Source: Eledone cirrhosa (taxonomy: Eukaryota). Taken from it: a stretch of 64,000 bases of DNA. The notes beneath the pieces are model-generated. The model worked only from the letters and a program-made list of their open reading frames with translations, searched no databases and had not been told where the DNA came from. Shown here one piece after another: positions 14,438 to 25,851 of this stretch. The stretch spans positions 1,240,001-1,304,000 of the forward strand of contig OZ024740.1 of assembly GCA_964016885.1 (NCBI GenBank). Reading direction: 5' to 3'. The position numbers and the translations under genes were made by a program. Within the stretch, counting starts at the first letter, position 1. Every line of letters begins with the position of its first letter.

Positions 14438-14699
14438 TTCGTTTCTGAATTTGTTTAGCAAGATTCTTTATCTGAAATCGTGTGTTGAAACCGATATTGT
14501 TATACTTTGGGAGGGTCATGTTGCCAATAAGAAACACACGCACCAGTTGCTTTCACTTCAATTTATTATATATTTATAAATTTATAAATTTATAAATCTA
14601 CAAACTTATAAATTTCTGGTTGGTTGGTTGGTTCCACAACCAGATAGTTGTTTATATATAGTCATAGTCCTTTCGTCACACACTCTGTGACCTCTTCAG

Positions 14700-15326
14700 T
14701 ATAGGAGCAAATTTTGGAATAGAATAGAAAGAACTAGGAACAAGGCCAATAGAATAAACTCATGGTATGATAGCAATAAATCCCAGAGTGTAATGTTCAT
14801 CAATACAACCCCTAGAGGCGAACTAGTCTACAAATTTAGAAGGGCCCTAAATAAACATAATCTCAATATTAAGATAGTAGAAAGACCTGGTACCTCCGTA
14901 AAAACACTTATTAGCAAGACATACCCGTTCCAAAGACCCTCATGTATAGATAAGAAATGTATAACCTGTAAAATAAGCCCCCATATTAACTGTAAAACTA
15001 GAAATGTAGTGTATAGCATAAGATGTACTGAAGGACAATGTAGAAACAAAAATATAGTGTACATAGGTGAGACAGCTCGTAGTATAGGGGAACGAATAAA
15101 TGAACACTGGCGAGACCTCCAAGATAATAAAGAATCATCTGTGCTCTACCAACATGCTAAGATAGAACACAGGGGTAGATTAGAGAGCATAGAAATAAAA
15201 ATAGAATCCACACACAGAAAAGACGCTATGTTTAGGCAAATTACAGAGGCAGTAAGCATAAAAGAATTAAAACCAAAATTAAATAGAAAATATGAGTGGA
15301 ACAGCAACATCACAACTTACAATTAA
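14700..15326 (+). CDS. C-terminal part of Penelope-like ORF: post-RT linker, Cys knuckle, GIY-YIG endonuclease (partial)
   Basis: Frame open from 14700: YRSKFWNRIER...WY...SVMFINTTPRGEL, CIDKKCITC, NVVYSIRC...YIGETAR...ERINEH...H...H...RQITEA...LNRKYEW. Confidence 0.9.
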   Translation, partial: YRSKFWNRIERTRNKANRINSWYDSNKSQSVMFINTTPRGELVYKFRRALNKHNLNIKIVERPGTSVKTLISKTYPFQRPSCIDKKCITCKISPHINCKTRNVVYSIRCTEGQCRNKNIVYIGETARSIGERINEHWRDLQDNKESSVLYQHAKIEHRGRLESIEIKIESTHRKDAMFRQITEAVSIKELKPKLNRKYEWNSNITTYN

Positions 15327-15613
15327 GGACAAAATGAAAACACACACACACATAGAACAAACAACTTACAATTAAGGACAAAATGAAAACACACACAAAA
15401 TGAAAACACACACAGGACAAAATGAAAACACACACACACATAGAACAAACAACCAGCCAACAATAAATAAATAAATAAATAAACAAATAGATAAATGAAC
15501 ACAAACACACACAGACACCCGGATGTGGCGCATGCGCAAACAACACACACACAGAAACAAAATGGCGTAGGATAGAAGAAAGGAAAGGCACAGAAACGAA
15601 GAAAGGAATCCCC

Positions 15614-15658
15614 AGTCACTGAAGAGGTCACAGAGTGTGTGACGAAAGGACTATGACT
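15614..15658 (+). ncRNA. Minimal type I hammerhead in the P1 pLTR
   Basis: AGTCA / CTGAAGA / extra G / GTCACA-gagtg-TGTGAC / GAAA-GGAC-TA / TGACT; CUA cleavage triplet. Confidence 0.78.
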
Positions 15659-15941
15659 ATATATAAACAACTATCTGGTTGTGGAACCAACCAACCAACC
15701 AGAAATTTATAAGTTTGTAGATTTGTAAATTTATAAATATATAATAAATTGAAGTGAAAGCAACTGGTGCGTGTGTTTCTTATTGGCAACATGACCCTCC
15801 CAAAGTATAACAATATATATATATACTTATATATATATATATATATATATATATAAACGGAAAAAATGAAACGATATTTCATACTTATATTTATATATAT
15901 ATATATACTTATATATATATATATATATAAGTATATATATA

Positions 15942-16674
15942 TGTATCCGAACAGCGATGTTGCATGGTAGTGAGACCTGGGCGCTGAAGGTGGAAGACTT
16001 ACGTAGATTAGAGAGAAACGAAGCCTGCATGCTCCGATGGATGTGTAACAGTAATATACGTGAACGACAAAGCATAAAGGAATTGAGAGAGAGACTGAGC
16101 ATAAGAGGAATCAAATGCTGCGTGCAGGAGAGGCGGTTACGCTGGTATGGACATGTGATGCGTATGAAGGATGACAGCTGCATAAAAAGGTGCAGAGCAC
16201 TAGAAGTTGATGGAAACCGCGGAGTGGGGAGACCCAAGATGACTTGGGATGAGGTGATAAAAGCCGACCTTACCCAACTACACCTCTCAAAGTCAATGAC
16301 ACACGACCGTGACTTCTGGCGTCACGCAGTAATACAGGGTACCCGACCTCCCATGGGTACATGCTGAAGCATATAAACAATATGCCCCCCCCCCCCCACT
16401 GCAAGGTGGTCGTGGAGGTGCCACAGCAAAAAAGCACCCAGCCCACACTGTAAAGTGGACGTGTAGGCGCCACGAAAAAGCACCCAGCACTCACTGTAAA
16501 TGAGGTTGGTGTTAGGAAGGGCATCCAGCTGTAGAAATCAAGCCAGATCAGTTCCTGTATGAGCAAGGCATGGTCAGCCGACCAGACACTGCCCACAACA
16601 GGACAACCCGTCTAACCCATGCTAGCGTGGAAGAACGGACGTAAAACGGTGATGATGATGATGATGATGATGAT
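15942..16674 (+). mobile_element. RTE family A 3' fragment
   Basis: MLHGSETW...GTRPPMGTC, 3'UTR and (GAT)n tail; near-identical to the element at 4994-8651. Confidence 0.95.
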
Positions 16675-24218: not shown

Positions 24219-24807
24219 TATATTTATATATATATATATACACATATGATATTTATATATATATATATATATATATATATAACGGTGATGAATTAGTTTT
24301 GCGAGGTTTTTTATATGAAATCGTGTGTCGAAACAAATATTGTTATACTTGGGGAGGGTCATATTTGTGTAATATTGCCAGAATTAATAACAGAACACAC
24401 TCACTGTTTGGTTGGTTTTCGCCTCTGTGTCTTTTATATCGGTTAATTTAATTTATTCGGTCCTCAATGTTACCATTGACTGACCAATGGTCAAAAATAC
24501 AGATACAATATAGACACAAACACATATATATAGTCTATCAAAGTTCTTTCGTTGCACATCTGCAACATTATCAGTGGTGCTATTATGTTTCCTCCCGTTG
24601 CATTGTATGCTTACGCCATCTTTAGTCTGTTGATTTATTTATTTATTTGTTGTTTTTTTTGTATTTTTGACTTCTTTGCGCATGCGTTTGCGTGTGTGTA
24701 TAGTGTTTTGTTTGATGTGTGTTCTTGCTTGAGTGACTGTGTATTGGTTAATGTATTCTATCTTAGTTTACTAGTGTGTGTTTATATGTGTTTGTTGTTA
24801 TTGCATA

Positions 24808-25287
24808 GGGAAATTAGCTAACCAGTGTAGAAAGGCCCTGACAATGACCCACTTAAAGATTAAGGTGGTAGAAAAGCCAGGAACCACCATAAAATCCCTG
24901 ATCAGCAAAACCTACCCTTTTAAGAAAACCCACTGTACTAATAGGAAATGTATCATATGTAAAGTAAACCCCCGGATAAAGTGTAAAACTAGAAACGTAG
25001 TCTATAGCATAAGATGTACAGAGGGTACTTGCAGAAACATGACAACAACATACATAGGCGAAACAGCTCGTAGCATAGGTGAAAGGATAGACCAACACTG
25101 GGGGGAACTAAAAGGACGAAAAAACGGTTCAGTACTATACGAACATGCTAGACAACAAGACAACGGTAATATAGACAACATAGAAGTTAGAATAATATCT
25201 AAACATAGAAATGACCCAGCAGATAGGCAAATCAGAGAGGCCAGCGAAATAGAACTTAGTAGGCCAAGGCTAAACAGAAAAAATTAA
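24808..25287 (+). pseudogene. Penelope-like GIY-YIG endonuclease fragment
   Basis: VVEKPGT, CTNRKCIIC, NVVYSIRC, YIGETAR, RQIREA, LNRKN*W; clear homologue of 14700-15326. Confidence 0.87.
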
Positions 25288-25595
25288 TGGAATAACAATA
25301 ACACCCAAACAAACAACACTGACCTAAGAGAAATATAAATAAATAAATAAATAAATACATACATACACAAGCACAATAACAACAAACACATATAAACACA
25401 CACTAGTAAACTAAGATAGAATACATTAACCAATACACAGTCACCCAAACAAGAACATACATCAAACAAAACACTATACACACACGCAAACGCATGCGCA
25501 GAGAAGACAAAAAAAATAAAATAAATAAATAAATAAATAAACAGACTAAATAAAGATGGCGTAGGCATATAATGCAACGGGAGGAAACATAATAG

Positions 25596-25640
25596 CACCA
25601 CTGACGATGTTGCAGATGTGCAACAAAAGAACTTTGATAG
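25596..25640 (+). ncRNA. Decayed hammerhead in the P2 pLTR
   Basis: CTGACGA-T-GTTGCA-gatg-TGCAAC-(A)AAA-GAAC-TT. The inverted copy near 24535-24580 keeps GAAA but reads CTGATAA. Helix I is weak. Confidence 0.5.
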
Positions 25641-25851
25641 ACTATATATATGTGTTTGTGTCTATATTGTATGTGTATTTTTGACCGTTGGTCAGTCAAT
25701 GGTAACATTGAGGACCGAATAAATTAAATTAACCGATATAAAAGACACAGAAGCGAAAACCAACCAAACAGTGAGTGTGTTCTGTTATTAATTCTGGCAA
25801 TACTATTTCACAAATATGACCCTCCCCAAGTATAACAATATATATATATAT

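Follow-up and report, generated by a model that had tools for sequence, protein, structure and literature searches.

P1 and P2, which appear to be two new and mutually related high-copy families of Penelope-like elements (PLEs), are inserted into (AT)n arrays of the Eledone cirrhosa genome as head-to-head palindromes with uneven ends. Nearly all two-armed insertions examined in these families carry one end at a near site and one at a far site of the element, and the additional segment at the far end, which can lie on either arm, is the "tail" published for Penelope-like elements. The mechanism considered probable here is that the two nicked strands of the (AT)n target each start reverse transcription at a separate fixed site inside the same RNA.

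Layout of the insertions in the window

The window, the whole 64,000-nt stretch of contig OZ024740.1 that was analysed, holds three such insertions, each a palindrome of a minus and a plus arm joined at their truncated 5' ends, with both 3' ends pointing outward into AT runs. Coordinates are counted from the last T of AAGTATAACAATAT, the near site, as zero, and positive numbers run into the tail. In all three insertions the plus arm ends at AAGTATAACAATAT (15816, 17568 and 25841) and the minus arm continues past the near site into the tail and then into an AT run, just as an earlier sequence-only reading of this DNA had described. The extension was given there as exactly 56 nt in both families. 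Ahead of the AT run it measures 56, 56 and 55 nt in insertions 1, 2 and 3, so that the figure stands for P1 and is one too high for P2; it also assigns the ATAT to the element at the near site but to the target at the far site, and when both sites are measured alike, to the last matching base, the tail is 60 nt long in P1 and 58 nt in P2, with possible ranges of 56-64 and 55-62 nt. A common start base for the P1 and P2 tails at +56 to +58 is possible.

The tailed (far-site) arm of P1 insertion 1 (14434..14700, minus strand) spans -199 to +60, with its tail at 14434-14493, of which 14434-14437 are an ATAT common to the target. The near-site arm (14699..15816, plus strand) spans -1119 to 0 and consists of the 3' end of the ORF, the 3' UTR/pLTR, and 26 nt of the next ORF, whose ATG is at 15791. 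An open frame at 14691..15326 (plus strand) holds a remnant of the C-x4-C-x2-C linker and the GIY-YIG endonuclease (CCHH), matching the Pfam GIY-YIG family with E=1.7e-4, just under the cut-off. Further downstream, a by-eye reading of the pLTR gives a candidate hammerhead-like motif (15614..15658, plus strand) with a CUGAnGA core, stems I and II, and GAAA. At 14699-14700, the tailed arm starts with the first base of this candidate hammerhead core and not at the predicted cut site.

P1 insertion 2 is much shorter, with a tailed arm (17317..17485, minus strand) from -108 to +60, its tail at 17317-17376, and a near-site arm (17460..17568, plus strand) from -108 to 0; the arms overlap in a 26-nt AT-rich self-complementary stretch. 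The two P1 insertions are truncated at different points and carry different subfamily-marking bases around -97, and are not a local duplication. In the P2 insertion, the tailed arm (24279..24803, minus strand) spans about -487 to +58, with the tail at 24279-24336 and a TAT common to the target at 24279-24281, and the near-site arm (24807..25841, plus strand) spans about -1072 to 0 and includes a degraded GIY-YIG remnant and the pLTR. The (AT)n target array on the left of P1 insertion 1 covers 12618..14437, and the remaining five ends are bordered by shorter AT runs.

Other repeats share this environment. A 1040-aa ORF with endonuclease and RT, which we take to be RTE-type, lies at 5297-8419 (minus strand), and an inverted partial copy of it at 10425-12422 (plus strand), with 100% complementarity of the arms along 1129 and 873 nt; copies of RTE type that have (ATC)n tails lie in AT runs across the window. 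Positions 1-4450 hold a 311-bp unit in two oppositely oriented arrays, 100% identical and ending in an AT run, and the start of this unit also flanks AT runs elsewhere (locus L027). A 43-bp satellite (34138-46533, 289 copies) is followed directly by a 50-bp satellite (46584-49157, 52 copies). Two long frames at 18610-21926 (minus strand), flanked by AT runs, belong to one element, presumably CR1/L2-like.

Coding capacity and classification of P1 and P2

Full tandem units, reached via read-through copies, measure 4423 bp in P1 (locus L121) and 4145 bp in P2 (locus L211), and their intact ORFs encode 1318 and 1209 aa. Each is a single ORF with an RT (YVDD) plus a GIY-YIG endonuclease at the C-terminus (VVY..YIG), and identity between the two proteins is 65% across RT and EN and 48% across the N-terminus. 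Long Asn/His/Thr-rich inserts lie between the N-terminal domain and the RT in both ORFs, and their length differs among copies. The whole proteins gave no match against Pfam, and protein parts matched RVT_1 (E=7.8e-5) and GIY-YIG (E=1.7e-4), both under the cut-offs. Upstream of the GIY-YIG domain both families carry a C-x4-C-x2-C linker, and the translations read as a CCHH motif with two Cys in the GIY-YIG core (VVYSIRCTEGQC...YIGET, then His residues). The closest named relative is an Octopus vulgaris protein (67% identical); among the 44 homologue matches, most without a name, none is named by PLE clade.

The available sections of PMC8557442 describe an RT, a CX2-5CxxC linker and a GIY-YIG domain with CCHH for Neptune/Nematis-type PLEs, and by these motif definitions P1 and P2 would be C-terminal-EN Penelope-like elements of this type, with ORFs that are long for it (1318 and 1209 aa) through the N-rich insert. 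Tandem or partial-tandem pLTR copies together with an inverted 5'-truncated copy, the arrangement of EN+ PLEs, are present in both. Penelope/Poseidon elements lack the CX2-5CxxC linker that P1 and P2 carry, Naiad/Chlamys elements have an N-terminal endonuclease where theirs is C-terminal, and the Hydra clade combines a CxCX5C linker with the absence of CCHH, which is present here. P1 and P2 work like the Poseidon element PAc and yet are not filed in the Penelope/Poseidon clade. Another PLE-like ORF (L053, minus strand, frame at 3004-4864) adjoins a P2 copy and has a C-x-C-x5-C-like linker, a Hydra-type motif according to the accessible text of PMC8557442.

Hammerheads in pLTRs are dealt with in PMC4209133, as far as its available text goes. 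Read by eye, the P1 pLTR has a candidate core with stems and the P2 pLTR a candidate core with stem II; Rfam returned no hammerhead match, only sub-threshold hairpin matches. The predicted hammerhead cut (about -163) shows no excess of 5' truncations, with one of 193 P1 arms ending within 2 nt of it. P1 truncation points do bunch at -254 to -274 (21/193 arms), which could be a true stop or an alignment effect bordering the variable UTR.

End positions and identity of the tail

The 25-nt end motif has 39,561 exact copies in the 3.0 Gb genome, against none for a reversed-pattern control, and about half of the copies stop at the near site (19,415 stops at 0 for P1 and P2 jointly). Exact patterns for P1 count 13,325 stops at 0 and 11,849 copies running on, with far ends at +60 (11,874) or +45 (50); P2 far ends lie at +58 (2,353), +45 (1,089) and +25 (28), and read-through matches number 459 for P1 and 337 for P2, the ratios among all these counts being approximate because the patterns differ in length and degeneracy. 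Near and far ends of P1 are balanced in number, the ends recur at discrete positions genome-wide, and the proposal of two fixed points matched to (AT)n is supported, at 0 and +60 in P1 and at 0 and +58 or +45 in P2. Of the 100 P2 +45 matches listed, 46 by hand count share the local variant of the +58 pattern, and about half carry another subfamily variant. Of ten +25 loci, three are paired with a near end and one with +58, and the others are single or unclear.

Past +56, P1 read-through copies read ATAT, as the sequence-only reading had anticipated; past +55, those of P2 read TAT. The P1 and P2 extensions had been said to differ in sequence, with their equal length across families taken as independent evidence. 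The tails are instead homologous, because they align without gaps (42/56 identical) and translate in one N-terminal peptide frame from an ATG 26 nt upstream, and with this homology their equal length is explained by inheritance. The tail corresponds to ORF codons 9 to 28-29. The two sites, previously placed in the tail end of the RNA, are internal, at ORF nt 26 and nt 84-86. At one group of loci (L113-L120, G000:C1:132947027-132947613), 46 bp from the start of the P1 ORF, covering +38 to +84 and including the far site, are repeated as 12 perfect tandem copies, and this array is joined to an inverted near-site arm.

Pairing of ends within insertions

The pairing of ends was followed in 250 loci which, together with the window, merged into 183 segments (1.2 Mb); these were picked around listed motif matches and are not a random sample. 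They contain 226 insertion groups, comprising 102 two-armed, 80 single-armed, and 44 set aside because of a segment edge or the lack of a classifiable end. After 16 of the 102 two-armed groups were dropped, in which one end lay elsewhere (interrupted or complex insertions), both ends were standard in 86, of which 83 paired a near with a far end, two had two far ends and one had two near ends (p=1.4e-21 against the 50:50 expected from independent ends). This proportion supports the suggestion, made from the window, that the ends are programmed and not random. The far end of the mixed insertions was at +60 in 61 of 65 for P1, and at +58 in nine and +45 in eight of 18 for P2. A check by coordinates only, on 186 P1 motifs listed from the initial 39.6 Mb of contig C1 and overlapping the 183-segment set, found 36 of 40 head-to-head pairs mixed, and two of the four exceptions were internal read-through copies.

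The tail lies on the inverted arm in the three window insertions, but in general it can be on either: in 62 simple P1 insertions the tailed arm was longer in 19, shorter in 31, and about equal in 12, and in 17 simple P2 insertions the untailed arm was longer in ten and the tailed arm in six. The idea that the inverted arm specifically is a second joining step is not supported, as either arm bears the tail and the order of events is not readable from the data. Some partners are very short, a tail-only partner being hidden in 6 of 43 apparently single near-site arms and a near-site partner in one of 33 single far-site arms; of 76 single-arm insertions with a standard end, 69 had no detected second arm. 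The junction gap was at most 5 nt in 37 of the 62 simple P1 insertions. In 12 of the 62, the truncation points of the two arms were at most 15 nt apart, against 3.4 by permutation, and several equal truncation points fall at self-complementary AT-rich stretches (-108, -95 and -82).

Match to the (AT)n target

The match to the target is 3-4 nt long at both sites, ATAT/ATAT at near and far in P1 and ATAT/TAT in P2, and 240 of 275 classified ends run in phase into AT for at least four further bases. ATAT/TATA 4-mers begin at only 1.4-1.8% of unit positions, yet sit at both P1 sites, and the sole one in P1 between +1 and +280 is at +60. The AT match alone is insufficient to set the end position: the 5-nt ATATA at +25 in P2 forms an end only 28 times genome-wide, and the TATA at -7 in both families accounts for 3 of 140 near ends. 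The use of +45 relative to the main far end is higher in P2, with its weaker TAT match (1,089 against 2,353), than in P1 with ATAT (50 against 11,874), which fits a role for pairing; the shift need not reflect pairing, because the subfamily variant and the protein (65% identity) also differ. In-phase joints could also arise without pairing, from a fixed start base and a fixed cut phase.

No clear difference was seen in the length of the AT run beyond far and near ends (medians 23 and 15, p=0.056, 83 pairs), so that repeat addition at one end finds no support here. The AT flanks mask any target-site duplication (27 insertions with short AT runs). Some AT flanks are interrupted by ACTT, and templating of these by the element was considered and rejected; they are treated as a local satellite variant, because they have the same top-strand reading at both ends and occur likewise beside RTE copies.

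Relationship between the two arms

Over -105 to -5, divergence is 3.1% between the two arms of a P1 insertion and 5.8% from one insertion to another (54 pairs, p=4e-7); for P2 the values are 2.5% and 6.0% (13 pairs). At the three-allele site -96 the arms are concordant in 34 of 34 cases, and 104 of 169 far-arm variants are common to the partner arm, where 24 would be expected. Variants private to one insertion are found in both arms 32 times and in one arm 136 times in P1 (11 and 23 in P2). A CpG change at -45 is confined to one arm in 11 of 11 cases, which argues against general homogenisation of the arms; over all CpG sites, 11 transitions are in both arms and 18 are one-sided. No P1/P2 hybrid junctions were found. 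Taken as sequence evidence, this sharing of variants favours one RNA as the template of both arms, and it also fits two RNAs of one locus, or fold-back in a subset of insertions.

Proposed mechanism and alternatives

The observations to be accommodated are ends at two discrete positions, both of them used in each event, a tail on either arm, variants common to the arms, and AT matches at both sites. In the proposed double priming on one RNA, the GIY-YIG nuclease would nick both strands of (AT)n, and a protein dimer on the ORF start would offer one 3' end the near site and the other the far site. The register would be fixed by short AT pairing, each target strand would prime on the one element RNA at its own site, and the two cDNAs would halt at variable places and then be joined centre to centre. 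End position would be governed mainly by protein-RNA geometry and not by AT matching alone. No stable RNA fold linking the near and far sites was found (z -0.2 to -0.8, no better than shuffles), and no structural ruler is therefore claimed. Several observations weigh against such twin priming, namely the excess of equal truncation points, which fold-back predicts too, the 76 single-arm insertions, and the larger number of one-sided than shared private variants (136 against 32). In addition, the available text of PMC11167929 has RT starts that lack homology to the cut DNA and are alike for the two strands.

Alternatively, if the dimer held two RNAs, one per subunit, with the complex imposing the near/far asymmetry, one-of-each ends and the greater length of either arm would be accounted for without two polymerases having to share a template, and an AlphaFold-predicted dimer is in keeping with this (PMC11167929, in its accessible part). 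The arms would be alike because both RNAs stem from one active source locus; the concordance at -96 (34/34), the 32 two-arm private variants, the lack of P1/P2 hybrids and the excess of equal truncation points would then all demand a single dominant source per event. This explanation is considered unlikely. It is also doubtful, and to a somewhat higher degree, that a palindrome is made first by self-priming or fold-back (PMC3846280) and is then resolved by the AT-cutting nuclease at two ATAT sites, one on each arm, following the EN resolution of the tail in PMC8557442, both as given in their available sections. Such a route would yield identical arms, AT motifs at both ends, and equal truncation points at the AT-rich self-complementary stretches (-108, -95 and -82), and the D. 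virilis EN required the tail for cleavage, as cited in the available text of PMC11167929. The same text reports in vitro RT starts on sense RNA that coincide with the tail ends, which speaks against resolution. Within the P2 tail, the stretch that best mimics the AT target (+25) sees little use, and resolution offers no reason for one of each end. We also know of no strand-transfer step for a nickase, which counts against this route.

In half of the cases simple fold-back does not work, because the tail cannot come from a cDNA whose priming was at the near site. The version nearest to the "second-end joining" of the sequence-only reading, in which a single far-site priming is followed by fold-back of the cDNA and by synthesis as far as the near-site ATAT, which then pairs with the second target end, would suit insertions with an equal or longer tailed arm (31/62 in P1, including window insertion 2). 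It cannot yield the longer untailed arms (31/62 in P1 and 10/17 in P2, including window insertions 1 and 3), nor the tail-only arms; highly improbable overall, it is ruled out as a general route and could apply to a subset at most. Chance, local duplication or an assembly artefact, hardly credible here, might be suspected in a window full of AT arrays and palindromes that are difficult to assemble. The same ends recur genome-wide in tens of thousands of copies with distinct truncation points and flanks, with reversed-pattern controls at zero, and these counts refute it. Double priming on one RNA is retained as the probable mechanism.

Relation to published systems and significance

In LINE-1 twin priming, one primer starts from the poly(A) end and the second uses an internal site whose position varies. 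P1 and P2 resemble it in that two target ends would prime on one RNA, leaving an inverted junction with microhomology, and differ in that their starts are fixed and close together, giving a palindrome.

Among PLEs, a close likeness is seen to Pen2a_Av from Adineta vaga (PMC3846280; PMC8557442 Fig. 2), which in the available descriptions has arms set head to head, partial tandem copies, a tail on one end only, a pLTR that covers the first ORF codons and is extended by the tail, and N-rich ORF inserts. The passages available report a 31-bp tail within the ORF start, optional on one inverted pLTR (PMC3846280), and, for PLEs in general, a tail of 30-40 bp, often at one end only and at either end, with a (TA)n bias that is ascribed to the linker in Neptune/Nematis-type elements (PMC8557442). 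Compared with these accounts, P1 and P2 have a longer tail (58-60 nt against 30-40), a one-sided tail in 83 of 86 insertions where it was optional or often one-sided, tens of thousands of copies, and an AT match at both sites. For PAc of Anolis carolinensis, a Poseidon element, the accessible part of PMC11167929 describes cutting and extension of both target strands in vitro, two internal RT start sites that bound the tail, and a predicted dimer. P1 and P2 share with PAc the two end points at the ORF start bounding a tail, the AT-rich target and, as proposed, the extension of both strands; unlike their sites, the PAc starts are described as having no homology to the cut DNA and as not differing between the strands, and PAc belongs to a clade without the C-x4-C-x2-C linker.

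The tail, its one-sidedness, and the two RT start sites are thus already in print. A literature search, with subscription journals outside its coverage, found no per-insertion count of tail pairing, no match of two sites to the target, and no one-template evidence. What is added here is the strict pairing, the longer tail, the target-matched sites and the one-template evidence, as a mechanistic refinement and not a new system.

The origin of the inverted structures and tails of PLEs, together with their microsatellite preference, is named as an open problem in the available text of PMC8557442, and that of PMC11167929 leaves the steps after initiation unvalidated. The pairing of a near with a far end in each insertion, with arms of a single source, reduces the range of models and yields sharp predictions for the existing in vitro assay, for which this genome offers near-identical tandem units with intact ORFs and two far sites that differ naturally (ATAT and TAT). 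As a tentative extension, possible rather than probable, PLE integration by one complex on one RNA might be an obligately asymmetric double priming, in which strand-assigned near and far sites evolved within the coding sequence as (AT)n-pairing templates in microsatellite-targeting lineages, much as the telomerase template pairs with the telomere end. If so, the head-to-head palindrome would be the normal product of integration and not an accident.
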